From the NCBI GenBank assembly GCA_001938485.1, contig MQRK01246435.1:42449-106448 (forward strand): DNA of 64,000 nucleotides. Direction: 5' to 3'. How positions within the stretch are numbered: the first letter of the stretch is position 1; each line of letters begins with the position of its first letter. Below the pieces are notes generated by a model. That model worked only from the letters and a program-made list of their open reading frames with translations, was not told the DNA's origin and did no database searches. The translations under genes were made by a program, and so were the position numbers. The DNA is from Girardia tigrina. Its lineage: Eukaryota. Of this stretch, positions 4,801 to 59,255 are shown piece by piece.

Positions 4801-7800
4801 AACGTTCTGAAAGAATTATTCGCCGTATATGCTTGAAAAATAGGCGTATGTCGATAAGTAAAATAACAGGAGCTTTCAATGCAGCTGGAATGATACATGC
4901 ATCACGAAGTACAGTGAATAGAATTTTGATAAAGTACGGCTTAAAAAGTCATTATGTTGTTTGCAAGCCTTTATTGAATGGAAAGCAACGAAAAAGAAGA
5001 GTTGAATGTGCTCGGGAAAAACAAAATTGGAATATCGATAAGTGGTCGAATGTAGTTTTTAGCGATGAATCTATGTTCCGCACATATAGTCACACTCGTA
5101 GCGAAAACGTTAGAAGGTTTGACAATGAAAGGCTTAGTCACATTTGTACTAAGAAGGTCCTCCAACACAGTGCCAAAGTTCATGTATGGGGATCTTTCTC
5201 CAGATTTGGTGTTGGTATCTTAAAACGGATAAACGGAGATTTAAATTCGAAGAACTATCAAGACCTAATTATCAATAACATAGACATTATAGGGCAATGC
5301 TTGGTATTCCCTCTTCAAAATTTTATATTTCAGCAAGACAATGCGCCTTGCCATCGATCAGCATCAACAGTGTCTTTTTTTTAAACAAAGAAGATAAATA
5401 TTCTTGATTGGCCTGCCAACTCACCAGATGTAAACCCAATTGAGAATTTGTGGTGTATTATAAATAGAAAAATAAATAATATGGATACTTTGAATTCAGA
5501 GAAAATGTGGATAGAAATACAAAAGTTATGGTACAACATACCAAGTTCTTTATGTCGTCGACTTGTCGATTCGATGCCGCGAAGGGTGTCTTCAATCATC
5601 AAGATGAAAGGATACCACACAAAATATTAAAAATAACATTTTTATTTGTAAATATAATATTTACTTCCACTTCATCGTCTTTTTACTTTTAGGAAATTTG
5701 TATAAGTGATGATTTTTATGGGTGCGAACAGACTTTTGGAACACACTGTATCAACTATTATATACATAGTGATAGGGGATGAGAACAATATTGAGAAAAT
5801 GTAAGAAGGTATAAATTAATAAGTATGGAAACTGGTAGAAAATTAAAATAAATATCATTGAATTGATTATTATAAGGAAGTTGAAAATTTTAATAAATTT
5901 TTTATGTAAATAAATTGTTATTTGTGTTAATAAAAATGTTATCATTATGAATTCTAATTCGAATATCGAAAACGATATAAATGCAACTAACACATTGAAT
6001 AATCTTCCATAAAGTTTTTTTATGATAAATTAGTATTTTTAATTAACTCGAATAGTAGGATTCATTATTCCTTCATTTTTGGAATAAACTAATATTTTTA
6101 TCTTTTTATTATGCATATTCTCCATTATTGATGTGAGGGATAATTTGGAATGTTGTAAGTTTGTTGTTTGCATGCTGTTTAGATTTGTGACTCTCCTACT
6201 CAGATGGGATTGATATGTTTATTGATTGATTATTTGAATCTAATGAAATTAATTTCATGATATTAATTTTAAGTACTAATTAATTAAAGTTTTATAATTA
6301 TGAATTTTAATAATATTTTTAGTAAACGATTTTAACTTATTAAATTTAATACATTTTAAAAATTAATGTTCATTTAAAAAATTACATAATGCCTTTTTAT
6401 CCAATAAAATTTAAGAAATTAAAAATTAATATTAAAAAAATTTCCATTGATTGTTTTTTTTAGATTTGAATACATAATCAAAAACTATATCAATCAAAGA
6501 AACATGACCTCTGAAAATTGTTGTGAAGAATCTGTTTGTGTTGGAAATAAATGTTTACATTCAAATTGTGCTGTTGTTAATAATATATATTCACTTTGAT
6601 ACATCAAAATAATAATATTAACAATAATAATATTAATAATTTTACAGTCATAACTCCATGAGGTTGGATCCACTAGTATTCGTTCTTTAGATTGAAGTAA
6701 TTCGGTTTTGAGGACGTCTTGCTGTGCGAGGAGATCGTATATCTTTTCGAATTGGATTTGTTTTGAAATTTTCTAAAAGTAATTGTTTATTAATTTATTT
6801 AAATATATTGAATAAGTATAATTATCTTAAGATAAATACTAAGATGTGTAAAGATTCTTAACTAATAATAAATAATTAAGAACTTATTCTTCTTATTATG
6901 CAGTGTTCATTAATGATTTATCACCTCTACTTTTACGAAACGAACTGCGTAAACCTTTCAAAAAGTCGTAGTAATCGAAAAGAAACAAAAGTTTAGGACA
7001 AAAATTCAAAAAAAATATTTAAATAACTGTTAGGTTCGTGATCAACGACAGAATGCATAACACAAATATTTATTAATTTAACAAATTTATATTTTCAAAC
7101 AAATTTATGAGGACCGATGTTTTCTTATTTCGCACAAACCAGTCATCAAAATTGCTAAACATAAATATCAATTTATAAATTTTAATTAAATTATAAATAT
7201 TTATACGTTATTTACTAAAAATTTTAATATTTTAAATTTACGACTTTATTTACGACTACATAGTATAAATGTGTTCAAGTGCAATTTTTGGTAAGCAGAA
7301 CTGGCGATGTGGGATGAAGGAAACATCTGGTTAAGATGTCTAACATTACTCTCAATAAAAATTAAAATCCTAATATTTTTATAAACAAAAACACGCCATT
7401 TGTAAAATTTATTTTTTATGACAATTAATTTCGACGGTATAACCGTCATCGTCAGGTCTCAAGAAAGAAATGAATTATAAATCTGCTTATATAGGCAAGC
7501 AGTGATTATGTCATCAATGGATTATTATGTCATCTAAACACGCTCAATAGGGTTTTCGAGAGACCCGTTTGCCCATTAATCTGAGGATCTAAAGATCTGA
7601 TATAAAGTGCTTCACAGGTCACCATCTCCCAATGGTTCTTAAAACGAGAACACAGAATTTTAAAATCATTTATGTTTATGTTTTCATTCGACTTACAACC
7701 CTTTCTGTGAACTGCAATATTACTCCCACCTACATTCCGACCATGTTCTTGGATTCTCTTACAAAGATGACGGGACGTCTCTCCAATGTATGTGGCATTA

Positions 7801-10800
7801 CACCCATTACATGTAAATTTATATACGAGANNNNNNNNNNNNNNNNNNNNNNNNNNNNNNNNNNNNNNNNNNNNNNNNNNATTTGGATTATGTTCGGATC
7901 TCGTATATAAATTTACATGTAATGGGTGTAATGCCACGTACATTGGAGAGACGTCCCGTCATCTTTGTAAGAGAATCCAAGAACATGGTCGGAATGTAGA
8001 AGGGAGTAATATTGCAGAACACAGAAAGGGTTGTAAGTCGAATGAAAACATAAACATAAATGATTTTAAAATTCTGTGTTCTCTTTTTAAAAACTATTGG
8101 GAGAGGGTGGCCTGTGAAGCACTTTATATCAGATCTTTAGATCCTCAGATTAATGTGCAAACGGGTCTCTAGAAAACCCTATTAAGCGTGTTTAGATGAC
8201 ATAACAATCCATTGATGACATAATCACTGCTTGCCTATATAAGCAGATTTATAATTCATTTCTTTCTTGAGACCTGACAATGACGGTTATACCGTCGAAA
8301 TTAATTGTCATAAAAAATAAATTTTACAAATGTCGTGTTTTTGTTTATAAACATAATTTGCCATTATTTTCTAATATTTTTACTAATTTATTTTATGTAA
8401 TTCACCATTTAAAAATCTTTCGTACATAATGTTTTACTTTCTTTACTTAACCATACGTTTAAATATTATATTAATTTTAGAGTTAAATTATATGATTTCA
8501 CTCTTTTTTTAAATTTTCGAGTTGTTCTATAATTTAACGTGAATTATGAAGCAAATTTTTATTTTTAAAATTATTGAATTTCATCTTTAAAATTCTTTTC
8601 AATAAACTTCTAATTTTAAATATTTTAGATATTTTTGATTTTCAATTATTCAATATTTTACTTTGTTAATATTAAAAGAAAGCTTTAATTTTACATTTAC
8701 GTAAAAATATATGAAAAAAGTAATATTTTATTTTTCTTAAAAAACAAAAATATTAGATTAATAATAAAAAATAATTGTAATTTATAAAATCAAATGAATA
8801 AAAAAATTAATAATTTTATTTTAAATTATACATATATATAATTGTTTTAATTCAAAAAAAGTTGATAGAATTTTGTTTTTTTTCTCAAAATATTAAATAA
8901 AATATGAATATTTTTTTTATATTTTTTTTCAATATTCAATGAAATAAATAATATTAATTGGGAAATAATAGTTGAATATATTTATTAAATTTAGTTGAAT
9001 GAAATTTATTGCCAACACATGTAGAAAAAATAATTAAAATAGATAATAAAATATCCACTGTTAAAAATTAAAATTCAATCAGTTTTGAATTACAGATTTT
9101 CACGGCTCATATCATTTAGAAATTATTTTTATATTTTATATGAAAATATTTTTATGAAAATATTTCAATTTAATATTTCTTTCTTTTCATAAATAATACG
9201 AAATGAATAAGAAAAAATATCATTTATAAAAAAATATTAAAAAAAAATTTAAAAAAATGAAAATATTCTTTTTTAGAGGAATGTTTAGAATTTATCTTTA
9301 CTCATTTATGTTTTCCCCTTAAAATAGATCTAAAATTATTACTTTTTTAATTTATTTTTTTAACATATAAAAAACGATAGAGAATATCGTTCTTTATTCT
9401 CCTATGCTTTCTTCATTTGATGCATTTTTTTTATTTTCAAAACAATACAAAAATTCAAACATGTGGAAATTTATTTTATTGTAATTGTATTTGTATTAAA
9501 ATTTTGTTATTCTTAAAATGTATAATCTAGGAAATATAACAGTTGGCGACATAACTTGTAGGGATTATATATTTGTTCTTTTCAGTTCTCCAACTGCTAT
9601 TCTGATGGTATAATCTTCCCCAAAAGAAAAATTCTATTCAAATTTTATTTCAGTGAAGATTAAAAAAAATTAAAATAATGTAAAAGTATCCCTTCAAAGA
9701 AAAATTTCAAAAATTTTCTGTTTCAGTTAATAACAACAATGAAATTATGAAATATTTTTGAATTTAACTAAAAAAATAAAATAATACTCCGACGCAACAA
9801 AATATATATTATTTATAAAGTTTCTATTGTAAAAATTTATAAAAAAATATTTAAAACTCAACGACAATTTTAGAAAATTTTTAAATATTTAATATTTCCT
9901 ATATTTGATATAAAATAATAAATAAATATTTATTATTTTTCTTAAATTAATTATAAAAATAAAATAAATTAATTAATACTTTTACTAATAATAAAAATTA
10001 GTTTTTTACCAATGTAAAAGTATAATTAAATGTAAAAGATAATTATTTATCAAACGTTTTCTGGAGCGGTTAAATTTCGGAAATTTATTTATGAATTTAA
10101 AAGGTAAAATTTTTAAATCAATGATAAATATTTGTTTAATATTCGAATAAAATTATAACAAGAATGAAAATCAAACATTTATTGCTACTGGGCAATTATT
10201 TGAGGGGGAAAAAATTAAAATATTTAATAAACTATCAGACGAAAAATATCTTTTTCTGTGTTTTGAAAATTTGGAATGAAACCGATTCTCTTTTATTGGA
10301 GGGAAATCATGAAATTCCCCCAAAAAAATAAAATCCTAATTTAATTATATTTGATACAATGTTTATTAATTCTTGGAAATTAATTCATCTTTAAAAAATA
10401 TGGAAAAGATAAAATGAAATTAAAATTACATTTAAAAAAAAATGGACAAATTTTTTTGGACATAAATAATAATTTTTCTTCAGGAAGTTTTCTTTTGTTT
10501 TATTTTTTTTTACCAGATTAATTATACATAAAAATACTGGATTATATTACTATTACCTTATTTATTTATTTAAACTTTTATTTAAATATAAAGATTTTAT
10601 AATAATATTGAAGAAAACTAATAATATGAATCTTAATGTGGGTTTTCGTCTTGAATAAATATAAATACATATAAGCAAAATAGTTACAAAACTATTAAAA
10701 CGTATATTTTCAGCAAAATACAATGGAAGGAGAGAAAAAGAAGAGTTGCAACATGAAGATCATAAATAAAAGAAAGTAGCTGTTAACCCTTTAGATGCCG

Positions 10801-12282
10801 CGAGATTTTAATGTTGTCAAAATATATTTCTATCGCTCCAATTCAGGTTTAAGATAATATATAGCGATATTAAGATATTAAATATTCGATCTTAGCTTGT
10901 AAAAAATACCAAAGTATAGCGAGTTAACTAGCTTATTTTGTATGAGTTACGTGGCGCGAGTTAACTCGCTTATGGCCCTTAAATGGGTAAAAAGAACTCG
11001 AGAAAGAATTCATGAATAATAACTTTGGTTTATACGATAAATAATTATTCTGTTTTTAGTTTTCAATGTTTTATCGATTTTATCATCGATTCTATTTTTA
11101 CATGCTTTACATTAGCTAGCTTTCTTTATATGTGTCTGTAGTGGTCAATTATATATATATAATTTACCTTAGTTATATAAACGATACTATGATGATATAT
11201 TCCTAGTTTTTAAAAATCAGGCTGATGTACTTCCATTTTTAAATTTTATGAATTCGTTACATTCAAATGTTACTTTCACAGTTGAAAATGAAAAGAATGG
11301 AGTCTTACCTTTTCTGGATCTTTTGGTTGAAAGAAAATTTCTTGGTTACGAGACTGGAATTTATAGGAAGCAAACTGATACAGGTTTATATACTTCACCA
11401 GATAGTTTTTGTGAATTTAAGTATAAAAGAAACATGATTAAAGGTTTAATTTATCGCTCCTGGTCGTTGTCTTCCACTTTTGTTAAATCTGTAGAAAGTG
11501 TTAATAAACTAAGTTCGTTGCTAAATAAGAATGGTTATTCTAAATCTTTTCTAGAAAAAATTAATAAAGGAAACAGTAGATAAAATACTTTTGAAAGATT
11601 TTTCGAAAAATCTGAGTTTGGCTTCTCCTGATGGATCTAAGAAAGAAATCGAAGGGTCAATAGATATGAATAATATGCTTAAATATTGTTTAATTGTACC
11701 TTATTCTGAAGGATTTAAAAACTTTAAAAATGAATTGTTAAAAGCTACTAATAATGAATTAAATTTAAAAATTATATCACGATCTCATAAAATTCAAAAT
11801 ATGTTCAATAATAAATCTATTACACCTTTAACACTTTGTTCTGATATTGTTTATGAATATAAATGTAATGGGTGCGATGCCACATATATTGGAGAGACTT
11901 TCCGTCATCTCTGTAAACGAATTCAAGGACATGGTGGAAAAGAGAGTAAGAGTAATATTGCAGAACATAGGAAAAAATATAAATGTGGTGTTAATTTTGA
12001 TAATTTCAAAATTCTGTGTAAGCATTTTGACAGTTATTGGGACAGAGTGTCGTGTGAAGCATTGTTAATTAGGTCACGTTGCCCTAAAATCAATGTTCAA
12101 TCGGCAGTCTCAACCAGCTTATTGAAAATTTTTGATTAGCATGATTTCATTCAATCGATTACATAATCATCATTTTTGTATTTATATACAGGTGAATTGA
12201 TTATTAATTAGTGACCAGAAGATGACGGTTGATCCGTCGAAATATATTGTCGTAAAATATATTTTTAAATGGATGACTTTGG

Positions 12283-12324
<42 letters not shown>

Positions 12325-15300
12325 ATATATAAAATTAAATATTTATATTTATAGACTCTATTAGTTTTAATAAACTATGTTGGGTTCTTTATAAAAATTA
12401 TAATTCATTAACACCAAATTTTATTTTTATAACAATAAAATTATTTAAACAATTTTTCTCCATGGATCTTTTCTTTTGTTTCATTTTTTGACCAGATTAA
12501 TTATACATAGAAATACTGGATTATAATACTGATAACTTATTTATTAAAACGTTAATTAAAATTGAATTTATTTTTTGATTACGTTAATTTATATATTAAG
12601 ATTTTATTATTTTATACAAATCTTCAAAATACATTATAAAAATCTAAACAATAACTGTTCTATTTTAAATCATTTTTAAACGTATTTTGCAACAATTTCT
12701 AGTAATCTAAAATTATTTAAATGCTGTTATTTCAATATTATTTATCTAAAACTAGTTAACTTAAATATAATTTTAGATCTTTTATAATATTTGAATGGTA
12801 CATCTACTGTTAAAATTAAATTTCTTAATATTTTATTCTTCTTTAATTGGTTAAACATTCAATTATAATTATTAAATTATAATTATAAATTGACAATATT
12901 TCAATTTTAAATAAAACATTATGATTTTTTTATTTTACCACCTAATTAAAAAAACATTTAATTATATTATGATTTATTTGTGCTCGATTTTTTTTGTACG
13001 ATTACTGAAATCATTTGGCGAATTTAATTACGACTTTTTGAACCTAATTGCTGAAATGAATTTTTTGAGTCTATTGATTAATGAAACGAATTTAATTCTG
13101 TGGTCGTTTTAATATATTTTAATTAATCTTTATTTAATGTATTTAAAGTATTTAATCTTTATGAATTATCGGCATCAAATTAATTGTTAATTTACCAATT
13201 GTTGGCAATAATTGTTGATTTACTTATTTTCAATACATTTTTTGTACATTGATTTTTTAATTTGTAAAAATATCTTAATACGAATAAAAATAATCAGCCG
13301 AACTAATTTCTATTAATTAATGAAAAATCAAAAATGGGCCCAGTGCGAACTGCAGCAAATCCAATGCCATGATTCTGCTACCACTGGTCAGCCTCTAGGA
13401 CCACCAGGAGACTGTACCAAAGACACAGAGTAATTGCTGTTCTTTATTATTTCGAAGACCCATATTTAGCAGGTTGTTTCTCAAAAACAAAGATGAATTA
13501 TTTTATGATTAAAGTAAGACTCAACAGGGGTTTGAGCAGATTACCGGTGTAACCAAGCAGTAAAGAGTTATTATGAAAAATAATAAATATAAGGTATACA
13601 AATATGAAAGTTCGTTTTTTTACTATTTAAAAAATTAAAATTCCAAAAAATTTTTAATTAAACTTTTATTAACAATAACATCAATATTATTCGAATTTAT
13701 TTGAAATTTATAGATTCCATCAAAGAATTTTCGAGCCATTTTCGCACTTCTTCGTGTTTTGTGAACTTCTGTACCGCCAATCCATGATCCATTGATCGAA
13801 ATAAGTAAAAATCCGATGGGGTAATGTTAGGAGCGTAAGTGGGATAAGATTTTCCACTTCAGTACTTTTATTGTATTTATGATCAGTTTTGCAAAATGAA
13901 GTCTCACATTGTCGTGAAGCAATATCGGGCATTCGTGTCTAGTGGTTCATTCCTGTCGTTTGGTGGTAACGTCTCTGTTCAGATTGACTAATTGCTCTCC
14001 ATAACGAGCCGCCGTAACAGTTTCGTAAGGTTTCAGAAGTTCATAGTACAAAATACCCGTCTGATCCCATCATATGCAGAGCAGCACCTTATTGCTATGG
14101 ATTTTATGCTTGGAAGTCATCTTTTGCACCTTTTTGGATCTGACCATGATCTCTCTCGTTTTGGATTATCGAAAAAATGTACTTTTCATGACCAGTGATA
14201 ATTCGATGCATGAATGACTCGCATTGCTGCCTATCAAGCAAAAGTTTGCACATTGCTCTTCGACTTTCTTGCTGGCGTTCAGTCAATTCATGCGGCACCA
14301 ATCGTTCTTCTTTCCGAATCTTGTACATTTCCTGCAATTGATTTGATATTGTTTGCTGAGTCAAACCTAACGCGTCAGTTAATTGTTGTTGCGTTTTGGC
14401 ATAATCTTTATCTTGTAAGGCTAGCAGTTCATTCTATTCAAACTAGCTTTGGTGGTCTAGCGCGGTCTTTGATGCTCAGATCAAAATCACCTTCTCTGAA
14501 CCTCTTAGACCATTTTGACAGGCTCAGAAAGGGATTGTATCTTTGCCATATACTTCAACAATCATTTTTTGAGAAACGATGGCACTTTTATTTGAGTTAA
14601 ACATGAATAAAATAACTTCCCGCAAATACTCTTTTGTTGAAGCTTCGGTGGTCATCTGTAAAATTACAATGAAATTTTATATGGTAATTTTTATTTAAAA
14701 TTCAAAAAGTAAAACACTCTACATTATAGATACAAACAAATGTTATAGAAAAAGTTTTATGATGGAATAATATTAGACAAAGTGAAACGAAATTTCATAT
14801 TTGTACATCTAATAATAGTCGCATCGTCAAGCAGAAAGAAATAATCTTCACCTACTTAATTTTATTTTGTTAGCATTAAAGTCAGGTATTAATAAAATGT
14901 TTCATAAATGCATAGGGTGCTCAAATAATAAAACTTTATGAAGTTCTCTAATTACTTTATGCAATCTGTAAAAGAAAATGTACAAGATCAAAACCTATGG
15001 TAATGAAATAATGCCAAATGCATTTTCTGGAAACAAATATTGTGGTTTAAAACCAAGATTATATAAAACAATAATATTTTATTGTTGACTTCAAAATTTT
15101 ACTTTCTTAAACATTGGTCGTATAAAATCCAGTATTCTTTTTAAGTTCTTTTGAAACAATGATTTACCTATTATTATACTTCTAATCAAGATATGATCCC
15201 AGATTTTAAAACTGCCTACCCCCCATAAGATTATGAATGTTTTCCTCAACTTCTGAGTTTAGTTAGAGTCATTAGTTAGTTGAGTTTCAAATGATTGAAA

Positions 15301-18300
15301 AAGATATTTTAGAAATTGTTTTGTTTTGTTTTTTTTCATAAAATTCATTAATTGCGTTTTATTTTATAAATGTATTTTTAAAGAATCTAATATTATTTCA
15401 ACATCCATGAGGTCAAAAAAATTGTAGAAAAGTTCAAGTTAACGAAATATAAAAGAAATACAATTATTTACGACAACTTTATGATAATATATAATCATTT
15501 ACAAGGATATTGCTTTCGTGACTGAGATTGTTAGTGATTACGATTTGATGAGGATGTAATTACAAAGAAGGAAATACAATATGAGGAAATCTTGTTTTTG
15601 TGCGGAGATAAACATCGGTGAAAAACTCTTTGAAAATTAGTAAAGCATAATTCTGTTGAACAAAGATTACAAATTAAAGAAAACTTGTAGAAATTTTGGC
15701 AATTTATCAAAGAAAATTGTTCCAAGGATGAATTATTTTGGGAAAAAGGCTACAACAAGAGGCAGCATATCCTAATGGGAATCATGATATGAAGTTTAAA
15801 ATGTATTATAACTTAGTTTGATAAATTGCGCTACTTGGAACATTTTTATTATCAAAGTTAAGAAGTCAATTAAAATTAATTTATTTTTTTTTATTAATTT
15901 CAACGGTTTAACCTTTAACTTTAGGAGAACTGATTTTTACAAATAAAATTAGTTATATATATTGTCATGCAATCATCTGCTACAGGTACCATGTAAACCT
16001 GTAATACTTGTCACATGGTCGAATAGTTGGCGACTAAACCGGCTGCCTCACCCACAGCAACCTGAGTGAAGAGGTGTGTGGACACCTAGCAGGATGAAAA
16101 ACAAAACCTTGGAGCCAACGGCCATCCATACCTGCAGAAGAGATAGGCGCCACCAGGTTCCTCACCTACTGAGACACTCAAAAATATGCAAACCCAAGCC
16201 ATATGCTTGTGCATAATTGAGTGCATCGACCGCCCGAAAAATCTACGGTACCAAAAAATTTTTGCAGGTATCAATTATGCAATACATATTTTTTTATCAC
16301 AATTTTTTAATGATTTTTGGTAAATAGTTTTTTTCAACTGTTATTTAGTTTTCATATTTATGATTTATACTTTGATATTTATAAATATTTGAAATTTGAA
16401 TTAAGTTATCGTTTTCAAAAAGTTTTTATTTGGTTTCTGTCTTCGGTTGATTGTTTTTTGGAACTTGTTGTTTCGAGTTTAATTTTATGTGGTAGGAAAA
16501 TGGAAAAGCACAACAGAAATCAATACCCAATACTAAAAAAGGAGAAGATGTGATAAATATACATTAAATTATATTTTATAATGGTGATATTTTTCAAAAA
16601 TCCATGAGTTTTGTTTTTTTCCTGCATAATATGTGTATCCGAATTCCACAATTCTTCTTTGACGAATTTATTATTATCTTTCATAGTTATATTTTACTTA
16701 ATAATTTTATTAATGTCACACGGTGACTTCTTCATACAAAAATCTTCAAAGTTTTGAAAATTTAAAATTTCTGTTAAAATTATATTTATACTGCCAAATA
16801 ATTTATTCTAAACGTGTACCAAGAGAATAATAATAATTATAAAATGTTTCAAACTATAAAAACATTTTTGCATTACTAAAAAATCCTTCGACAGCTAAAA
16901 ATAACTTTTTTTAAAATATATTTTCATACTATATTTATTTACAAAATTAAAATTATATCATTATTTATTCAAATAACACTGAAATAATTCAAAATATATT
17001 TTAAAAATTTATATTATATTTTATAAATATATTAATAAATATTCTTTTATAATAGATATTTAACACGTGTTTATTAACAAATAATCAATTTCATTTATAT
17101 TTTCATTTATTGTCAGCGATTATTTTGGTATTTTCTGTATTTTTTGCGGTGAATGTTTATAGTTTTAATTTCAACTTTGCATTTTTACAATGAACCGAAA
17201 AGCTGAAAAGGTTAAATTTAGAATGAAACATGTTATGAAAGTCATAAATGACGTTTGTAGTGGTATTTGAAAATCTTCATCCAGAATGAAAACTTTTCAT
17301 TAATAATTAAAGTTATATTATTAATAAATTACAATAAAAACTATTTAGTAATTTAGGAAACGACAAATTAATTATTTTTTTAATTTTAAAAATTGATTTT
17401 ACATTTGTGAGGAATATTTGGAATTTTGATGTTTTGTGTAGTGTTTGCATGTTTGATTGTTGCATGTTGATTTATAATTGTCTCTCCTAATCAGATGGAT
17501 GATTAATATTTTAATTCTTTTAATCTGAAACTAATTTATTCAAATTTAGATTTAATATTCAAATTTTTAATTTATTATTATTGTAAATTTTAAAAAAATT
17601 ATTAATTGTTTTTTTGTAATTTTTTAAATAATTAAATCAATGTTTTTAAATGATTATAAAAAATAATTTTATTTTAACCAATAAAATTTAAAGTAAATAT
17701 TTTAAATAAATTCTTTTCAAGTTAGTTCAGATTTGGAATGAGAAGTATTAAAACTTGAGTTACGAATTTAAGTAAGAGAATTACTAATAATATTCATAGA
17801 GATGATCAAAGTTGTGAATGTAATAAATGTTCTGTCAAATGTGTGAGTTCCTTAACAATATTTACTATCAAAATATTTAGAGACAATATATTTCGACCAA
17901 TCAACCGTCATCTTTAGTTCACATAAATGTAAAAATAATAAATACGTAATATATTGCATTAAATCAAGTTAATATAAAAATTTTCAACCATCTTATTTAG
18001 TTATTTCGATTACAAAATTTATTTATAAATGCTGATTGGGATCAGAAAACAGCGGGAACAATCTTTATGATGAACCAATTTAACATTTGTTTTCTTACAG
18101 GAATATTATCAAGTAAAATCAACTCTCGTTCACTTTCGTAGTTTTGAAAATAAACAGTTGGATAAAGAAGACATGACTGAGTTTAAAGATAGTTTAAAGA
18201 TAGCAAATAGTTTCACGAAACATGGAAGCTAAATTTATAGGTTGTGATGCAATATTCAAACGCAATCATTTTAGATGATCCGAGAGATGAAATATCTTAA

Positions 18301-23631: not shown

Positions 23632-23668
<37 letters not shown>

Positions 23669-25162
23669 NNNNNNNNNNNNNNNNNNNNNNNNNNNNNNNN
23701 NNNNNNNNNNNNNNNNNNNNNNNNNNNNNNNNNNNNNNNNNNNNNNNATATATATATATATATATAATATAATTTTTGTTCTCAAACTGCCGTTGGTCAC
23801 TACAATTAGGAAATAATTGATATAAAATATATTATAGCCCCAAATTTTAAGACAAAAATAATTTTGAAAAATAGAAAATAAATTCTTAAGTAAATACTTA
23901 AAAACTGTCTAGTAAAAGTTTAAATGAATAAAATGTTAAAAGCAATATTCAAACAAAAAAAGAATAATTTTATTGGTTGCTTGGTGACAAGTTTTTTTAT
24001 GTTTGAATAACTTACTAATTTCTTGTCATTTATTTGTCTTCAAGATTTACAGTTGCCTGTGTGTTTATAAAATATCGATTACATTTACTAAAAAAATAAA
24101 TAAAGTTCTTGAAGATTATATTTATATTTTTTAAAAAAATATATTTCTATAATAATCACATTGAATTACAAAATTTATTAATAATAAAAAAATAGACAAA
24201 ACGGATAAAAATATGAATAATAAAAATAAATTATTTTTTTAATTCTATAGTATTGATTTAAATAAAAAATACCAAAAAATATCAAAAATGAAATTATTGA
24301 AATAAATATTAAGTCTTTGAAATGTTTTTATTAAATCATGACTTATTTAAAACCTTTAAATATTTTTTAAAAATATAAAAAAATGTACTTATTTATATTT
24401 ATTTAATTTTAATTTTTATTTATTTTTACTTTTTAATCATTTTAAAAATGTCAGAAAACTAGAAGACATGTTAACTTCAAAAAAGTCTATCACTAAATGT
24501 TCTGTTCAAATTTCTTTCCAAACATTCCCGTTTTTTGGTTTAATAGAATTATTTTACAATTTAGATACAATTTGATTAGAAAAAATATTTGATTAAATAA
24601 TATTAGCACTTTAATAAATGTTTTTTTAAGATATTTTAACAGTTATTTCCTTTAAATTAGACTGAAGGCTAAACAGAAAGAATGCATAAGCTTAGAAAAA
24701 GAAAAAAAGAAACAAAATAAATTATTAAATCATAAATTAGATTTTAAAATTCAATTTGACATCAATTTTGATTGACCAGACGATGATAGAAATAAAATTA
24801 TATTATATGAACTAGTAAAAGACTCGTCATGTATAACGGGAGAGTTAAATTTCGTTTTTGAAAGTTTCTGTTTTAATTAAAAAATCGAATTTATAATTTA
24901 TTATTTCGAAATAGGTGTTTAATTTTTCAATTTTTTTAAATTTAATTTTTTTATTTTCTTTATAAACCCTAACCCCTAACACAAACTGTAACCCTAACCA
25001 TAACCCTAACTCCTAACCATAATTCTAACGCTAACGGTTAACTTAAACTCTAACCCTAACCATAGCCCGTAAAACGATTTTCGCCACAAAAAATGTAAAC
25101 TAATTTAATTATCTACTTACAATTGTAAGTAAATAATATGAGCGTTACGCAGATGAAACATT

Positions 25163-25202
<40 letters not shown>

Positions 25203-28200: not shown

Positions 28201-31200
28201 TTCTCCAAGTGCGAAGCCTTGTACATTGGAGAGACAAGTCGTCATCTCCGCACTAGAATTGCTGAACATACTCAATTGAGTAGAAATAGTTCGGTATTGA
28301 GCCATATTAAAAGATGTAAAGGTAATCTTGTGGATTACAATAAAGATTTTAAAGTGATTTTAAATAATTTTGACACAAATTATGAAAGGATTATTGCTGA
28401 AGCATTGTTAATAAAGCATCATAAACCATGCTTAAACGTGCAAGGTGATTCATCTAATCATATTAAAGTTTTTTAAATATCATTAAAATATATAAATGTT
28501 TTTTTCTAAAAAAAGAAAAAAAGCATGTTTTTGAGACGTATGATGTAATAGTTTTTCAACTATATAAATAGCAATTAATCACTTTATTTCATTGCACTGA
28601 AGATGCCGAAATGGTGAAACGCGTTTGTATTGGGAATAAATTTAATATTCAAAAATGGCCTTTTTTGTATAATATATATATAAAATCAATTTTTACAACT
28701 GAGAGGAATATTTTAAATTGTATGAATGTGTGAATGTAGTGATGTTGTATGTTGATTTGAGTATGTTGAATTTAGAATGGTGATTCTCCCACCCAGATGG
28801 AAATTGGTATTTTTAATATATTTACAATGATTGCCTATTCGAACATAATTAACATAATTATTTTATATTTTTTAAATAAACAATTAAAATGAAGTTTAAT
28901 ATTTTTTAAAAAAACAAAAAGAAAAGCATTTAATTAGATTTAAATTAAATTCAATTTTAACAATTTTATAAAGTTTATATTATTCTGAGTTTTTATTCAG
29001 AAATGGTTAAAATTATTACTTTTAATTAAAGCTTTTATAAAATAAAATATTTTAAAAAGACTTTAAAAAATTGTTCGAATAATCATGATTAAAAATAGAA
29101 ATAACAAAACCAATTAGAGCGATGTCCAACAGTCTTGCGAGAGTTGTAATGACTCTTAATGAGATAATAATCAAGATGCTAATGAAAAGTTAATATGAAG
29201 AATTATACATTGAGAATAAGTTCACATCTTAACGGCAAAAAATATTTTCAACACAATTGATCATTAAATATATATGAGGATGATGATTATGTAATCGAAT
29301 ATGTAATAAAGGCTCTATTAGAAAATGTTTAATAGAGAAGTTAAGTGTGAAGCTTGGATATTAATTTTTGAATCCATGGATCTTATTAATAGGGCCTCAC
29401 ACGTTACTCTCTCCCAGTAATTTTTAAATCGATTAATTAAAATTAAAAATTACATAATTGATTGCATAACCATCATCTTCATATATAAGCTGCAAAAGTC
29501 AGTGTTAATTTAGTCTGAAGATGGCGGGTTATCCGCCGAAATTAATTACAATAAATTTTGAAAAATGTCGTTTAGTTTTTAATCCAGATTTTAAATTACC
29601 ATTTTTTTAAATTCCTTATTTGAAAATAGTTTATTTTTATAATTAAAATAGTTTTTAAATTCAAAAATTTTATAAAATTAAAGGTAATACAAAATTTCGA
29701 AAATAATAAATCTGCTTATTTATATTTACAATTATTTTAATTTTATTGGTTTGTGCTAGAAAAATTCAAAAATTGTTACCAAGAAATTTGATTAAGAAAA
29801 CTTGTTTGAATAATATTTATATTTTTGTTATTAAATAAAAGTTTGGAAAATGTCTGTACTGTCATCTGAAAATAATACTGAGCCGTACACTGCTTTTTGT
29901 CTACTGAGAGTCCAAATATTTTGTCTAAAAAATCAAATAATATGGAACGGAACATTTTTCAAATGTTATTATTATTGTCTAAAATATCTAAAAGCTTTTT
30001 AAATAAATATAATAATTGTTTTAAAGTGAAATCCGGATGATAATTTTTTATTGAAAACAAAACTCATCCATTTAAAAATATATTTATAGACAATATATTT
30101 CGACGGATCTACCGTCATCTTCAGGTCACTGATTAATAATTAATTCGCCTGTATACAAATACAAAAATGAATATTATGCAATCGATTGCATGAAATCATG
30201 CTAATCAAAAATTCTCAATAAGCTGGTTGAGACTGCCGATTGAACATTGATTTTAGGGCAACGTGACCTAATTAACAATGCTTCACACGACACTCTCTCC
30301 CAATAACTGTCAAAATGCTTACACAGAATTTTGAAATTATCAATGTTAATATCACATTTACATTTCTTCCTATGTTCTGCAATATTACTCTTACTCTCTT
30401 TTCGACCATGTTCTTGAATTCGTTTACAGAGATGACGGGCAGTCTCTCCAATGTGTGTAGCATCGCACCCATTACATTTATATTCATAAACAATATCAGA
30501 ACAAAGTGTTAAAGGTGTAATAGATTTATTACTGAATATATTTTGAATTTTATGAGATCGTGATATAATTTTTATATTTAATTCATTGTTAATTGCTTTC
30601 AAAAATTCATTTTTAAAGTTTTTAAATACTTCAGAATAAGGTACAATTAAACAATATTTACGCATATTATTCATATCTAATGGCCCTTCGATTTCTTTCT
30701 TAGATCCATCAGGAGAAACTCAGATTTTTCGAAAAATCTTTCAAAAGTATTTTATCTACTGTTTCCTTTATTAATTTTTTCTAGAAAAGATTTAGAATAA
30801 CCATTCTGATTTAAAAAGGAACTTAGTTTATTAACACTTCCTACAGATTTAAGAAAAGTGGAAGACAACGACCAGGAGCGATAAATTAAGCATTTAATCA
30901 TGTTTCTTTTATTCTTCAGTTCAAAAAAACTGTCCGGTGAAGTATATAAGCCTGTATCAGTTTGCTTCCTATAAATTCCAGTCTCGTAACTAAGAGATTT
31001 TCTTTCAATCAAAAGATCCTGAAAAGGTAAAACTTCATTTTGATTAGCATGATTTCATGCAATCGATTACATAATCATCATTTTTGTATTTATATACAGG
31101 TGAATTGATTATTAATCAGTGACATGAAGATGACGGTTGATCCGTCGAAATATATTGTCTCTAAATATATTTTTTATTGGACGAGTTTTTTTTAATTGTT

Positions 31201-33035: not shown

Positions 33036-33108
<73 letters not shown>

Positions 33109-36100: not shown

Positions 36101-36161
36101 ATTGGAGAAAATTGATTGAGTGAAAGGTCTACAAAAATATGTTTCTAAATTTCATGGATAC

Positions 36162-36201
<40 letters not shown>

Positions 36202-45200: not shown

Positions 45201-48200
45201 CATTTAAAGATATACATATATAAAAGCCACAACCCGGTTTAATTTTATATTATTTTCAACAATTAAAATCTGCAGTACACGCTAAATCAATTTCCTCAAG
45301 AGAGAATTAAAGTTTGAGTATTTCTAGGAGAGTTGGGAAAAATTGATATCGATTTTCTAGGGAAAATGTGCGCTTTAGAGTGGCAATTTTATCAATATTA
45401 TCAATTTTGACACAATTTAGAGAAATTAATATATACATATATTAAACTATAAATAAATTATGTATTTCATCTTTTAAAAATCGTTTTAAAAACCAAAATC
45501 TATTTACTAACGCAAAATATTTATAAGAAATGCTTTGTTAAAAAAAGTCTTTTTTAAAGATTAATTTGAACAATAATTTGAATATGTATTAAAAAAATAT
45601 AAAGGACGATAATATTTATAAATTAAAAAGTCCCACTTTATAATATTAGGTTTGTCGAAAAATAATGGCGGTTTTTGGACACAAACTTCAAAGACGTGCA
45701 AATTCACAGAAACAAAAGTTTATTAATCAAAGTATGAACCGTTGGCATTAATACATTTTTGCCAACGAGAAACACGTTGTTTTATTCCATCAGCATAAAA
45801 TGCATCCGTTCTCGAAGCGACGAATTCTTGGAAGGCATTTTGAGCATCATTTTGGTTTTTGAAATTTTTTTCACGTAGGAAGTTGTACAAATGCCTGAAA
45901 AAGTAGAAGTGCGTTGGCGAGAGGTCTGGTGAATATGGTGGACGAAGCAGGGTTTCATAGCCCAACTCATTAAGCTTTTGAAGAGTCACTTTTGAAATAT
46001 GAGGTCTAGCGTTATCATGAAGAAGGATGGGACTTTTTCGATTGACCAATCCCGGACAACGGGTTTTCAATTTTTTATGCATTTCATCAATTTCATGACA
46101 GTACCTCTCCGCTGAGATTGTTTCATCTGGATTCAAGAAACTATAGTGGATGATTCCAGCATCACACCACCAAACTGTCAACATAACCTTACGGGGTGTT
46201 AGTTTCGGTTTTGGAAAGTGTTTCGGTACTTTATCTTTGTCCAACCACTGTGCAGATCGACGTCGGTTATCATACAGGATCCATTTCTCAGAATACGATC
46301 AAGAAATGGATCGTTTTTATTGCGAAGATGATTGGCAGAACAAATTTCATAGCGTCGGTTCTTTTGATTTTAATTCAAATCATGTGGAAACCATATATCA
46401 AATTTCTTGATTTTTCCAAGTTGTTTTAAATGATCCAGGACTGTTGTATGACAAATGCCCAACCCATCTGCAAGTTCTCTGATTGTTCTATGGGGATATG
46501 TTTCCACCATTGTCCTCAAATTGCCGTTGTTCACAGCCACTGGATGACCACGACCTTCTTCATCTTCAAGGTTTTCATCTCCATCAGAAAATTTTCGGAA
46601 CCATCGTTGCACAGTGCGCTCAGAAGCTGTTCCCTTGCCAAACTATTTATTGATATTGCGAGCCGTTTCTGCTGCTTTACGACCCAGTTTAAATTCGTAC
46701 AAGAAAATTGCTCGAATTTTAATTTTTTCCATTATTAATTTAGCACCGTAAATATTCTAAAAAATAACAGCAATATGTTAATAATGGCTATAGGAATATA
46801 CAGCTAGGCATAAGATTTCAAATAATATCTAATACTAATGCATTTAAACTTATATACATATCAAAATAGATAAACAAAGTATAAAGCTCAAAAACCGCCA
46901 TTATTTTTCGACCAACCTAATACATATTTAACTCAATTTATATCGATAGAATTTTCGTTATCATCTGACACTTCTGATTCTAGCTGTTAAACTTATATAT
47001 GTCAAATGATGAATAAACAATTAATTATGTAATAAATGTTTTAAATTAAAATAAAATCAAAGAATAAACTCAACAAATTATATTAAAAGTCACATCAGAA
47101 AAAATCATATCACTGAATTTTTTATATACAATTAATTATTATAAAAGTGGCTAATATAATAAAAGTGGCCAGACTGTAATCTGAGACACTGCGATAAAGC
47201 TATGTCAGTCAGCCAGTTCATAGCTGCGCTTCATTTTTAAATCGGTAGGTAATTGACATATAATATCTATAATATCAATAATCATTTGCATTCAGTCATT
47301 TATACTGTTAGTGACTTTTTTATGCCTAATAAGCGCGGAAAAAGAGAAAATATTAAGAAAGCATTGAGAGGAAAAGAGAGAGTAACTTCAATAAGAAAAG
47401 CTGCAAAGGATCATAAAGTGAACAAAAGCACTCTTCAATGACGAATAAAAAATTTTCGTCCTTGTGTTCTCAGTCAGGAAGAAGAAACTTCCATAGCTGA
47501 TACAATGAAGCAAGTAACTGAATGGGGCTTCGGATTCACTCATGAAATTGTCACACTGCTAATTAAACTATATCTGGATAGCAAAGGATATATGGAACCA
47601 CGCTTCAGGAATAACTTACATGTGGAAAGATTTAGTCGTTTCCTTTAGGAAGAGAAACAATCTTGTCACTCGTAAAGCTGGCAGTATTAAAACTGCCAGA
47701 TTGTCTGTGCGTGCAGAAGACATAAATTCGGTTGTTGATAAAATGATTGACGAAATTCCACAAAACAAAATGTTTAATTTTGATGAGACGGCATTTATCG
47801 ACGACCCGAGATCAAATGCAGTAATCGTACCAAACTGAACAAAAAAAGTAGCCGTTGTCAAAGAACACAGCAAAGTTAACATCTTGTGTGTTGTTTACCA
47901 AGCGCAAAACCTATACGCAGGGTGCACGCGTGGAAGACATGTTGGAACATTGTACAACATGAGTCAGTTAGGCAGGTTCGACAGGGAGATATTTGAAGTG
48001 TTGTTTGAGAAGCTATTTTTTCGTCATGTCAGAGAAGCTAAACTTGAAGGACAAGTTCTTCTGATAGGTGATTATTTAGTATCTCATTTTTCTGTGAAAG
48101 TTGTCCAAATTGCTAAAGAAAATAATATCACGTTTGTCGCACTTCCTCCTAACTCTACTCATCTGTGCCAGCTGTTGTATCTCAGCACAGGGTTTTTCAG

Positions 48201-51200
48201 TCTTTATTATTGACAATTCTTTTTCTAAATTTTTCTGATCCGTGGGTGATTGATTCATCCATAGTTGCAACAAATGATCAAGATTCGATAAACAAAATAA
48301 CACATGTTTTCTGTCATAAATGAGTTTTAAAGTTAAATAAGCAACAGAATCATGAGACGTTATTTGATTTAGAGAAGATTCCAATATTGATTTTACATCC
48401 GCAGCTTATTATCATCTTTAGTAAATTGTGGTAGTATTTGGTTTGTTCTCATAAGAAGCAAATCAAGAATAGTTCTAAATATCATTAATTTAATCACTAT
48501 GTTAAACGCCGATCGTTTCCACACTTCCATTTACAATTCAAAAGAAAGTTATATTATTTGTTTAACAAATCGTCATAGACTGAAATTAACGGTTTTTTAC
48601 AATTGTTTGTTTTGAGTTTATTACAATTCCTTAATAACATTATTACCTCACATTTTTTTTCTAATTGGTATTTGCTATATATGTTTATACAAACGAAGTT
48701 CATCAAATCGTTATACTTTTCGTTTTGGTTAGCTTTGTCTGAATAAACACGAGCTATGTTGATATCTCGAACAAGTAAAGCGGTCTTAACACGGCCTAAT
48801 TTGATGCAGTCAACTTTAAAGGTGATGGTTTTACAACACGGAAGGAGCTCCCATGAAACAGCTCCCGATGTAATTCATCAAAGGTACAACATAACCTTTT
48901 AATTACTTCGAGGCGTCAATTTTCCAATTGAACCTGGACTCAGGCATTGGTATTTTTTCATTTCCGGTTATTGTAGACAACCCATTTTTCATCTAAAGTC
49001 AAAATCCGTTGCAAAACTCAAGTTCAGTTGTTTAATTCGCCCTATTTTTCTGCATTTCATTGAGTTCGTGTGGCACCTCTTGACGACGTTTATTTTTTTT
49101 CTTTATTTTCTGATGTTTCGAATAACGATTGTATGAGAAATTTGGAGTTCAACTGCCAGTAAGCGCATTGTTTAGGTCAGATTTGCTTTAATCAAACAGT
49201 GCAGAGCTCATTAATCAATGGTTGTTTGGCGTCCGAAACCCTTTTCATCTTTACGAAGCATATTGCTGAGGTGGAATTTCGCATATCATCGGAAACATGT
49301 TTGAAGTCGTAGAATCTCGGCCGTTGCAAGCGCAAATGTTTTAGGAGGCTACCGTTTCTGTACGACCAATTTAAATTTATTCAAAATTAAGTTGCACATT
49401 TCTTCACACTTTTTTAAAATTTTAACTTGGTCCTAAATCAATAGCATTTTATAGAAAAGACAATACAATGCGAATAATATATCAAATTGCTCCTGAGAAT
49501 AAATAATTTATAAAATCAATATAAAATAAAATTAATTTCAAAATTTATTATATTTTAACCAAAATTTACAAAGTTTACATTTTAAAGTAAATTTAGCTTT
49601 GAAATCTAAGAAAATAGTAAATTTAATAAATAATAAATTAATTTCCTAATTAATAATATAATTATTATTAATATTAAATGAGAATAATATTTAAATATGT
49701 AAAAAATATGAAAAAAAATATTTCATTGTATGGGGGAGAATTAGTTGTTAAGAATAAGATTAGTTAATTGGTAAAGGATTATTATTGTTATCCTCTTTTA
49801 TTCAGAAATTAATTGAGAAATATTTTCTTTTCAATTTTATAAATTTCATTGTTTATCACCATATTTTTGGAATAAAATATATAAAAGTAAATTAAAAATA
49901 ATTGATTTTTTCCCAATTTTTTACAATATTATTGTAATAGTTGTCTTAAAAAGAATTTAATAAAATATAAAATTGACATATATTATAACAAGAAAATATA
50001 TAATTTTTAAAATTTATTTATATAAAATATATTAATACAAATCTCATAAAATGAAACTAAAAACTAAAATAAGCTGCATTTAAATATCATAAAAAACTAT
50101 AATGATTATATTTTTAGGAGGATTCGAATAATAAAATGTCAAGTAATATAAGACTGAAAGGATTTCTAGTATCATAACACTTCCGTTCTATAATTGTATT
50201 TTATTTATTCATTTAATGACTGTCTCTATAGGTTTTGTACAAAATTTAGTGTTTAAGTTGATCAATGCTTGATGCAAAATATATAATATTGTTTTATTTA
50301 ACGTTTGAAGAGTAGCCCTACCTTTCATCACATAGGCAAACATATAGGGTTAGGGTTAAGGTTATATCGTGACATAACTCCTATGGGAATTTGTGTCCTA
50401 AAACCATCCAAAAAATTACTTTATAATTCGTCAAAATAATTAGATCTATTTATCTTTTTATATATTTTTTGTTTGAATATTAAACAAAAGTTTTGTAACA
50501 TACTAAGCATAAATATTTATCATTTTGTGACATATTCCGTTTTCTTTTTTGTTGAATGATATTTTATTTTAAGTCAAACTAATTTTCTGATGGAAGCTCT
50601 CAATAATATCTCAAATATAAATTATTTATTTATAAATTATTAGAAAACTCACGGATTCTGATCCAGATTTCTCAGGAATGGAATTGGTAAAACTTGGTGC
50701 AGATATCCGCCTTTTTCTCAGTAAAAACGACGAATGTTCTTCGCCAACTTTGTTACGGGACGCTCCCAAATAAATGACAGTATCACAGGATTGTTCACTA
50801 CTTGACGTATAGTCAGCTTCTGAGGAAGTCATTCCGTTGGTACTGGATCCAGATGAAAATCCTGCGCTTCCTGCTTTACTTCTACTAGCTCTTCGAAATC
50901 CAAAACTATCACAAGAAGAACTATCATCAGAACTTGTGCCAGACAGTTTTGAAAATTTTCGTCTCTTTAGTCTTTGTAGTTTTAGAGCGAATTGAATTAT
51001 CTTAATTAATGTTAAATTATATATAAATCATGGTAGAAAATAAAAAAAACATGTTATATTTTTTTGAATAAATGATTTGATTATTATACATATAAAATAT
51101 ATAGCTGATACGCGACTGATAAAATCAAATGCAAGAATTAAAAATTTCTGACGAGCCGTTTCATTTTCGTAACTGATATCCAAAACTTATCTTTATCATG

Positions 51201-54200
51201 TTTATAAAATATTAATAATAATAAAAATAATAATAATATTAAAAATAATAATCATAATAATATATTTCTTATTTTTTATATTTACCTTTATATTTAAAAT
51301 CTTTATGGTCACGAAGAAATGTAATCATATTTAAAATTGATAACAAATAATAATACATATATAAGACGAAATCCGGTTATAATTTTTATTTTTTTAATAT
51401 TGTGAAATAAAAGATAAGCTTTAAAGAGGAGGGTATTTATATATAAGGTTCTAAAGTATGAAATTTGTAGAACTAAAGTCAAAGTTTATTGATAATTTAC
51501 CAAAACAAATATTTATGTCATTCATCAAAGTATAAACCCATAATTTCGACACACTTTTGCTATTTGAGCGACAGCATATTGAGGCTATTTTGGATAAAAA
51601 ATTGGTAGGCGAGAATCTGGAAGGACATTTTTTCGGTATCTTCGGAATTTTGATTTTTTTTCTATCTAAAAGTTGTTCAGATTGACTATGAAATGGTACT
51701 CAGGTGGGGCAACGTCTTTTGAGTATGGAGAATGATGCAGAAGGTCCAACTCAAGTTCCTGTAGTTTTGTCACGGTCATTAGGGCAGTATGTGGTTTTTC
51801 ATTATCATGGCGCTAGATGGGAACCGACCTACTTATCAAACGTGGATGTTTTTTTTAGTTGACGCATCCGATTCTCCAACTGGTTGCAAATGACATCTTT
51901 TGTGATCAAGGAACCAGGTTTCTTGAAGTTATAAAGGATTACACGTGTGGCAGACCACCAAACATTCGCCATCAACTTCTTTTGCTGAATGTTGTGCTTT
52001 GAACTGTGTTTTGGTGTTTTTTTTGTCCAATCCAGCTTGCTAAACATTTACAGTTATCATATTAAATCCATTTTCCATCACAAATGACAAGTTAATTCAA
52101 AATTTTTATAACTTTTATAACGAGAAAACATCGTAAAATGCCTCCAGACGCTTTTATTTCTGCTTTTCATTCAATTTATATGGAATCCACTTTTCTAACT
52201 TTTTTTACTTTACTAATTTGAGCGAAGTGATTCAATATTGTTTGCATTTACAGCAAACGTTAGCGATAAATTTTGAGCAGTTTGTGATGGATCCGACTCC
52301 GCGGTTACTTTCAGTTCGATATTGACTAACTAAGTTCCTGGACGACCCCGAGACTCTTTATTGAGGTCTAAATTACCTTTCACTAATTTCCAGAAACAAT
52401 TTTACTGTCTGTTGCGTATTAAGATTGTACAATACACTATTGATGTTTTGCATGGTTTTTGATACTGAAGTTCCACATAGGAACTCTTACTTCATTGTTC
52501 AAATTTCTGCATTTTCTATTTTTGAAAATACTAATTATTAAAACAAGTTATCATTAATTTAAAACATTAATTTCAAACATTATCATTAATTTTAAAATAT
52601 CATTATCATGCTTCTTTTACCAATCTACGGAAGAACAGCACAAACGGATTTATACGATAGATTTAAAGAGGATAGATTTAAATGGATACATGTTTGATTG
52701 AAGAAAAGAAGGGGGCCCTGTACCGAAGGACAGTGCCAAAGATTATTTTTTTGCAATAGAAATTTCGATAATATTCTGATAAACAATCTAATAAAGCTTG
52801 ACAATCAAATATATTGCAATTTTACTTCTGTTTTAAGTACTATTAAATAAATGAATTGTAGAGAAAGGAGTTTTAGAGTTTTAAAAGTAAATTAGAAGGT
52901 TGAAAAGATTAAATAGAAGTTTTGAAAGTATAAAAATAGGTTGAAGAGTCAAGTGGAAGATTTTAAATTTTAAAAAGAAGATATTTAAGTATAAATTGAA
53001 CGTTTGAAAGAGGGAATTGGAAGTTTTAAAAGTCATGTAGAAGTTTTAAAAATCTAAAAGGAAGGTTTTAAAGCATAAATAGAATATTTTTAGTATTAAT
53101 ATTGGGTTGTTGCATAAATTCCCGCCGTTTTTTAAACATTTATTTTCAAAGAAATCAAAGAATTTTAACAACCAAAATTATGACTCAGTTAATTAAATAT
53201 TTAATGAAATCATAAAATTTTAACAGCAAAAATAATAACACTTCAATCAATTATGTACTCTCCTTCATTGTTCATTACTTCTTCCAATCTTTCCACCAGT
53301 TTGTTGATTCCATTTCGCCAGAAATCCTTAGGTCGAACATCAATGTTGTTGAGCCAATTCTCAAGATGATCCTGATTTTCGAAGCTAAGACACCTCATTT
53401 CATTTGAAAGGCAGCGGAAGAGATGGTAATCCGTCGGGGTGATGTCTGCAGAATAAGGAGAATGTTGAAGGACCTCCCAGCCGAGCTCTTGAAGTGCCAT
53501 CTTGACAGTTTTTGCGGTGTGTGGTCGAGCATTGTCATGGAGGAGGATCACCTGGCCTTGTCGATTTGGTCTTTTTTTGTTGAATTGCCTCATTGACTCG
53601 ATGCTTTTGGGCTTTACAGAGATTTTTTTTCTACTGTCATGTTCTTTCCAAGCATTTCCCAGTGGTTTAGACCTTTGCAATTCCGCCATACGCAAATCAG
53701 TGTCTTCATTGGGTGCAGATCTTTCTGGATCTCTTCTCTCCTTACTCTTCTCTCCTGGAATCACCCACTTTTTCCTTTGCTTAATTTTCACATAGAGACA
53801 CCATTTCTCGTCTCCAGTGACGATTCTGTATAAGAAACGTTGTCTGTGGCCATACGTCCTTGATGTTGACCGAGATTTTGAGCAGCAATGGAAAGCCGCT
53901 TATCCTTCTGTTTTTGGGTGAGTTCGTGCGGGATCCAAGCTCCAAGCTTTTGAGTGAAACCCATCGACTGAAGATGGCGTGAAATTGTCACAAAATCACA
54001 ATTCATCTTTTCGGCCAATTCTCTGTATGTCTGGTTGCCATCTTCCTTCAAAAGATCCCCAAGTTGGTCCTCGTCCATCTCAACTGGTCTTCCGGAACGA
54101 GGAGCGTCGTTGAGATCGAAATTATCGTGTTTAAACATGGCCAAGCAATCCCGAGCAGTTCTCTCAGCTATAGCGTCCTCTCCATACACGGTACAAATAT

Positions 54201-59255: not shown

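Follow-up and report, generated by a model that had tools for sequence, protein, structure and literature searches.

A five-copy dispersed repeat of Girardia tigrina that may consist of decayed solo LTRs and often lies beside Penelope ends

Which kind of element recurs five times in this part of the Girardia tigrina genome, and why do its copies lie so often beside Penelope-like elements? The window, i.e., the whole 64-kb stretch of AT-rich eukaryotic DNA analyzed here (1058 N), contains ~10 Penelope-like insertions with RT, GIY-YIG, and hammerhead motifs, as well as mariner/Tc1/pogo remnants. A Pfam scan, which covered 181 of the 266 stop-free frames of ≥50 aa, returned mariner/Tc1/pogo, Penelope RT, GIY-YIG, and kinesin domains. 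The first-pass annotation had described an unclassified element in five deeply diverged copies and had offered three candidates for it, namely, an intron-containing Penelope leader, solo LTRs of a diverse family, or a family of small transcription units. The copies, their shared motifs, and the host gene are as follows.

6132..6623 (+): copy A, with a TGTGAGG start, head, AT spacer, and AATAAA at 6546
17406..17857 (+): copy B, the most complete, from TGTGAGG to CCTTAACA, with AATAAA at 17822 and a GT-rich tract between
17401..17405 (+): left target duplication of B, ACATT
17858..17862 (+): right target duplication of B, ATATT, with one mismatch
28700..29134 (+): copy C, whose homology to E reaches 29134; it may extend to about 29253
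54622..55039 (+): copy D, from TGTGAGG to GCTAACA, with AATAAA at 54994; in a kinesin intron, antisense to the gene
57390..57870 (-): copy E, same family as C, with an eroded start and AATAAA at 57432
6191-6207 (+), 17482-17498 (+), 28784-28800 (+), 54685-54701 (+), and 57771-57787 (-): core YTCTCC-N4-CRGATGG in A, B, C, D, and E, respectively
54964..54976 (+), 29122-29134 (+), and 57462-57474 (-): distal motif ATGTCMAAYRGTC in D, C, and E, respectively
34283-59379 (-): KIF26-like kinesin host gene with long low-complexity exons, from Pfam and the ORF list

The best named match of a kinesin exon is Priapulus KIF26B (50%), and the ORF list suggests that D and E share one intron of this gene, with A, B, and C beyond its last long exon. 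Copy B is bounded at either end and measures 452 bp. The 3' end of A is uncertain (about 6592, or a TAACA ending at 6623). TA-rich runs lie on either side of E, and a short TA run precedes C.

Our analysis revealed that the five copies are real and lie where they had been reported. The core occurs exactly five times window-wide, each time within a copy, and a three-block head pattern matches four copies (E being eroded) versus none in 100 shuffles. When the ~105-bp heads were aligned, 10/10 pairs scored above every one of 300 dinucleotide shuffles and also above each of 300 segments drawn at random from the window. Consistently, leave-one-out nhmmer searches with head profiles recovered 5/5 heads, with E-values of 2e-8 to 4e-18 for A, C, D, and E and of 8e-7 for B, and found no sixth copy in the window; a profile built from A, B, and D alone detected C at an E-value of 1.5e-7 and copy E at 1e-5. 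The claim of five deeply diverged copies holds for A, B, and D, which are separate lineages, whereas C and E form one family, being 85-89% identical (98/110 in the head, 243/287 in the spacer). There are two subtypes, A/B/D and C/E (heads of D and E are 63% identical versus 88% for C and E), and they are tied together distally by ATGTCMAAYRGTC, which in the window is found in C, D, and E only. This motif, like the AATAAA of E, had been missed in the first pass. Homology between C and E stops right after it, at 29134/57462, beyond which identity drops to 40/69; the distal ends of both copies are partly set by a neighboring Penelope copy.

Two observations concern the sequence just upstream of the copies. 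The ~17 bases before B and C (17389-17405 and 28682-28699) are alike (AAAAT..ATTTT.ACA), for which a target preference, a 5' extension of the element, or AT-rich chance are all candidates. In addition, a degenerate tandem array of 20-21-bp units (52877-53101 and 54490-54605), split by a mariner copy (about 53104-54460), ends right at the start of D.

The head is the best-conserved part of the element. Its start block reads TGTGAGG in A, B, and D and TGAGAGG in C, and is eroded in E, all as first reported. Heads contain 0-5% C and 65-78% G+T, and each carries one or two copies of a GYATGYTG unit. Although the core reads SPxQM on the plus strand, its frames carry stops, and the spacings between head blocks differ by non-multiples of three, leaving no conserved reading frame; likewise, RNAalifold of the heads on both strands gave five pairs with no compensatory change, hence no conserved fold. 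These negative results fit motifs that act at the DNA level, and the core is a candidate factor-binding site, within which lies an E-box-like CAGATG.

Conservation is lower beyond the head. The extreme-AT spacer that had been described is indeed present (12-13% GC), and its homology is clear only for C/E (0/300 shuffles), being borderline for A-B (1/300), A-C (6/300), and B-D (6/300) and not significant for 6/10 pairs. The proposed conserved distal block stands in part: five of 10 pairs reached significance (A-D, C-E, and D-E at 0/300 shuffles, A-B and C-D at 3/300), whereas the other five failed and a leave-one-out distal profile did not recover A, B, or D. Of the distal motifs, AATAAATGTT is poorly specific, with nine occurrences in the window, three of them in copies; ATGTCMAAYRGTC is a candidate initiator region or ORF start. 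By eye, the alignment also offers putative TATA-like and initiator-like sites upstream of AATAAA.

Taken together, we consider the copies best read as decayed solo LTRs of related Ty3/Gypsy-like families, at a probability of roughly 0.5. Of the three candidates offered earlier, this one is the best supported. Hallmarks of animal LTRs, as given by Benachenhou et al. (PMC3601003), include TGTTRNR...YNYAACA termini, a weak TATA, and AATAAA with a GT-rich stretch downstream; the same paper gives a 5' motif TGTNANR for rGmr1, an AATAAA near the 3' end for Sushi, T-rich U3 regions for both, and tandem repeats within U3. The copies resemble these Ty3/Gypsy (Metaviridae) LTR models in their TGTNANR start (TGTGAGG in A, B, and D), their YAACA end (B, D, and possibly A), an AATAAA close to the 3' end that is accompanied by a GT-rich tract (A, B, and D), a T-rich and C-poor upstream part with tandem units, and a length of 420-490 bp. 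More specifically, the end of B fits YNYAACA and lies 36 nt from AATAAA; D, which has a 7/10 terminal repeat, ends in GCTAACA at a distance of 46 nt from AATAAA; and the TAACA of A lies 78 nt from AATAAA. As the first-pass annotation had noted, A, B, and D have GT-rich tails, in all three following an AATAAA. The AATAAA of E is without a GT tract, that of C has one mismatch, and neither C nor E has a GT-rich/AACA 3' end of LTR type.

We compared these features with random AATAAA sites (21302 trials), under criteria chosen after the copies had been seen. A YAACA 25-85 nt from AATAAA, as in A, B, and D, is found at 19% of random sites, or 0.7% for 3/3; when the GT-rich tract is included, 11 of 447 AATAAA sites qualify, three of which are those of A, B, and D (criteria again post hoc). 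The near-duplication ACATT/ATATT around B is real, matching at 4/5 bases and in register with its TG...CA termini; a YAACA end plus duplication occurs at 0.6-1.0% of random AATAAA sites, and the chance of at least one copy with a duplication is 1.7-4.7% (also post hoc). None of A, C, D, and E has a target duplication at a plausible end, the single-mismatch matches of D (+385) and E (+547) falling inside the distal block or a Penelope tail.

Starting from the repetition, boundaries, motifs, and B termini with their duplication, all of which are directly observable, we infer a course in which the U3/R/U5 assignment, parent family, solo formation, and order of insertion are interpretive. The copies would be old solo LTRs or, in the case of C and E, 3'-clipped LTR remnants, from at least four related lineages (A, B, D, and C/E). 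An integrase would have inserted the parent element by its TG...CA ends, leaving a 5-bp duplication, and LTR-LTR recombination would then have removed the interior so that one LTR was left. The head would correspond to U3, its short tandem duplications being enhancer units and its core a conserved site of factor binding. The distal block would comprise the TATA/initiator region, then a short R in which AATAAA lies, and a U5 that is short and GT-rich. Penelope elements would have used the same AT/TA-rich sites, later or earlier. The "functional cassette" proposed in the first pass holds in this LTR sense, because a solo LTR is itself a promoter/polyA cassette, and lacks support as an intron-containing leader of the Penelope families in this window.

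Several features set the copies apart from Ty3/Gypsy LTRs. Their strongest cross-family conservation is at the 5' end, the reverse of the pattern described in PMC3601003, in which R/U5 is usually better conserved than U3; one of five copies has a duplication; C and E are without 3' hallmarks; and no parent element was found in the window. Within this scope, there is no gag-pol with a copy on either side, none of the copies is preceded by a purine tract, the candidate ends of B and D are not followed by TGG, and no gag or pol domain was found beside any copy (Pfam, 181/266 frames). Nor is adjacency to Penelope predicted by the solo-LTR reading.

The window does contain a separate Gypsy-like remnant at 19051-19824 (+), a 237-aa frame with an integrase C-terminus lead (Atlas score 0.84). 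From 19825 onward (+), an LTR-type start, TGTAGTG, stands behind a purine tract and is 72% G+T; it is unrelated to the five copies, although their C-poor, T/G-rich heads resemble it. We considered B as the 5' LTR of this remnant and rejected the assignment: the remnant ends in a different LTR (222/300 shuffles score as well).

Copies D (+) and E (-) converge, and this arrangement raises the question of whether the copies are instead the long, degenerate or asymmetric ends of a cut-and-paste DNA transposon, with A/B/D as one end type, C/E as the other, and D and E as the two ends of a single 3.2-kb element that a Penelope copy interrupts. The existence of two subtypes, and an outer boundary that is sharp while the inner one fades, would suit transposon ends. 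TG...CA termini, a TGT start, and integrase-like ends, as seen or suggested in the copies, also occur in Ginger-type DNA transposons. Unlike Ginger elements, however, the copies have neither long near-perfect terminal inverted repeats nor a transposase. The earlier statement that no terminal inverted repeats are visible needs amending only for imperfect 10-bp repeats in B (6/10) and D (7/10); near-identical ones are absent, the best internal repeat being 7/10. Further points against a transposon are that the heads of D and E agree at 63% versus 88% for C/E, that no duplication surrounds the D-E pair, that the window offers no partner end for A, B, or C, and that B is closed on both sides. ARAGORN found no tRNA, as had been reported, and among the frames covered Pfam found no transposase between D and E. 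We therefore regard a transposon origin as improbable.

Some features would suit a host family of small transcription units that encode a short Cys-rich peptide or a non-coding RNA, i.e., Cys-containing frames of 28-31 codons that open with ATG in A and D, and acceptor-like YAG/ATTTG sites in A and B. However, AATAAA lies inside the short frames, before the stop codon, which makes a host peptide gene unlikely; the frame of E has one Cys, and that of C is out of frame. There is also no Rfam or Pfam match and no covarying RNA structure (five pairs, none compensatory, on both strands), and C and E have come to differ to a similar degree in head and spacer, as is typical of decaying copies. The small-transcription-unit family is thus a weak candidate, which we rate as somewhat less probable still than a transposon. 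Rfam searches up to an E-value of 1 gave three matches in the window, none on a copy, and we rejected a structured RNA, a tRNA-derived SINE, and a retrozyme, for which there was no Rfam family, tRNA head, or covarying fold. Non-LTR retrozymes (bioRxiv 10.64898/2026.07.22.740005) are likewise short non-coding units linked to Penelope-like elements; unlike the copies, they carry a hammerhead and form tandem arrays.

The neighborhood of Penelope ends is the feature that the solo-LTR reading leaves over. The relevant elements, treated here as neighbors, are as follows.

17870..17987 (-): hammerhead-bearing 3' fragment of a Penelope element, the tail of which faces B at its 3' end, 13-21 bp away
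28206..28672 (+): end of a Penelope copy with GIY-YIG, hammerhead, and a tail that stops ~28 bp short of C; 98.9% identical to P0003
29269..29570 (.): inverted Penelope pair downstream of C
55519..57343 (-): 5'-truncated Penelope RT-EN with inverted tail and TA runs at both ends, 479 bp from D and 47 bp from E
7454, 8275, 12216, 17916, 28598, 29516, 30123, 31125, 32965, 55601, and 57236: 11 hammerhead Penelope 3' ends of several families

The claim that B, C, and E adjoin Penelope termini and that D lies about 500 bp from one is borne out: a Penelope end lies within 60 bp of the boundary in 3/5 copies, a number reached by 0 of 20000 random placements (with hand-set boundaries). Since Penelope insertions help to define where C and E end distally, we repeated the test anchored on the heads only, which gave P = 0.0006 for the whole window and P = 0.004 for its Penelope-rich first 34 kb (not AT-matched). 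Penelope proximity thus exceeds chance within the window, yet is unexplained. Its orientation is inconsistent, C standing behind a tail and B and E facing tails head-on. The simplest account would be shared AT/TA-rich sites, or one element targeting the ends of the other. Elsewhere in the window, a 120-bp direct repeat (10468-10587 and 12448-12562, 82% identical) flanks the Penelope copy at 11160-12284.

Could the copies belong to the Penelope elements themselves? In its simplest form, this explanation makes them the 5' leader of the hammerhead-bearing, Poseidon-type elements of the window, in keeping with the position of C behind a same-strand Penelope tail and of E upstream of a same-strand Penelope RT. 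In 9/11 hammerhead ends, however, an ATG occurs 45-60 nt after the hammerhead, opening M-[AST]-x-[FLV] starts that by eye resemble the N-terminus of a full-length relative, P0014 (44% identical to P0003), and the tails end a few codons in. ORFs are known to start at the hammerhead in Anolis and Adineta elements (PMC11167929 and PMC3846280), and a pLTR plus tail holds 12-22 codons (PMC3846280). With the ORF apparently starting 45-60 nt after the ribozyme, there is no room for a 470-bp leader. Moreover, A, B, and D have no upstream hammerhead, no copy contains a hammerhead motif, E and the RT have an inverted tail and a TA run between them, and a GT at the post-core position occurs in C and E only. 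Given these points and the inconsistent orientation, the intron-containing Penelope leader suggested in the first pass is, for the Penelope families of this window, very improbable.

A less direct link deserves more weight, although we still regard it as unlikely: the copies could stem from a Penelope-like clade without hammerheads (Naiad-type or undescribed), either as solo pseudo-LTRs or as non-autonomous derivatives, or could form a cassette mobilized in trans by Penelope enzymes. The head may then be an internal promoter, perhaps located in an intron that starts with GTGAG; the first 12-30 ORF codons may lie in the distal block. This explanation draws on the Penelope ends within 60 bp of 3/5 copies (P of 0.0006-0.004) and on the position of E between TA runs, a preferred Naiad target according to PMC8557442, which describes Naiads as having no hammerhead, favoring TA repeats, and carrying an N-terminal CX2-5CxxC. 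Known pLTRs contain TATA/Inr-like sites together with the first 12-22 codons, and other DNA can be mobilized in trans by Penelope (both PMC3846280); Penelope and Chlamys have introns in the 5' UTR that overlap their promoter (PMC8557442). In the copies, the GTGAG found at base 2 in A, B, and D would also make a splice donor, A and D have short frames with Cys that follow an ATG (the matching frame of B has one internal stop), and homology between C and E falls 13 nt past the ATG. On the other side, four copies share one 5' boundary with no upstream RT remnant, B has TG...CA ends and a duplication, and C is without the base-2 GT.

Our searches for a link at the protein level were negative within their reach. 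No RT/EN remnant or ORF with CX2-5CxxC or GIY-YIG was seen to be continuous with any copy, and Pfam found no Naiad-type protein among the 181/266 ORFs covered. Compared by eye with Naiad N-termini (PMC8557442), the copy peptides do not fit CX2-5CxxC. They have no database match either, although such short queries have little power: phmmer with the 31 aa of A against 1.84 billion representatives gave no match; a three-sequence distal-peptide alignment against longer proteins gave 14 candidates, none at an E-value ≤10; 0/4 distal peptides matched Pfam; and the distal peptide of D gave nothing beyond leads under 0.9 in Atlas. The five head motifs had three matches in the Naiad/Chlamys/Hydra supplement (PMC8557442), none in a matching context.

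Compared with Penelope-like pLTRs (Penelope/Poseidon, Naiad, and Chlamys; PMC8557442, PMC3846280, and PMC11167929), the copies share a terminal unit with promoter-like motifs and a possible 3' ORF start, AT/TA-rich sites, and clustering with other Penelope ends. They differ in being without a hammerhead, EN, or RT remnant, in their one shared 5' boundary, and in the TG...CA of B; they are also longer than the 193-218-bp pLTRs of Adineta. The most specific version, i.e., a ribozyme-less, non-autonomous unit moved by Penelope-type machinery that starts at a splice donor, has its internal promoter inside an intron that is retained, breaks off after the first few ORF codons, and preferentially targets the ends of other Penelope elements, or else a pLTR of an undescribed clade, is in our judgment slightly less probable again than the broader explanation.

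The head pattern had no match in GTDB genomes. Our literature search found no description of this element in the portions of the sources available, and the accessible text of PMC4209133, PMC6431247, and the retrozyme preprint (bioRxiv 10.64898/2026.07.22.740005) contains nothing like this unit.

In sum, the chances are about even that this dispersed repeat, which looks like an LTR, also worked like one. If the copies are solo LTRs, the gain in annotation is modest, namely, a diagnostic motif for LTRs across lineages that are only 50-60% alike, together with a candidate conserved enhancer core in U3. If adjacency to Penelope held genome-wide, one retroelement class would target the ends of another. 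If the unit belonged to Penelope biology, the cis signals of hammerhead-less elements, and the reason why Penelope-like elements keep introns, would become testable questions, and for a true ribozyme-less unit the head motifs would be the first cross-family conserved promoter/recognition signals of such elements. The five-copy repeat is probably ordinary, its one unexplained point being the frequent adjacency to Penelope ends.

Several other features of the window were also observed. A second dispersed repeat occurs at 52258-52573 and 61779-62035, 78-89% identical in two blocks and with a GC-richer core. A degenerate telomere-like TAACCC array lies at an internal site (24965-25061), close to a TA run, and a short version lies near 50346-50362 (-). 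A 121-aa frame at 60116-60478 (-), with no Pfam match, is found beside a TAA run and a GC-rich block (59921-60070). Finally, a young mariner family is represented by two copies in opposite orientation, at 45642-46922 and 63156-64000, which are 93% identical.
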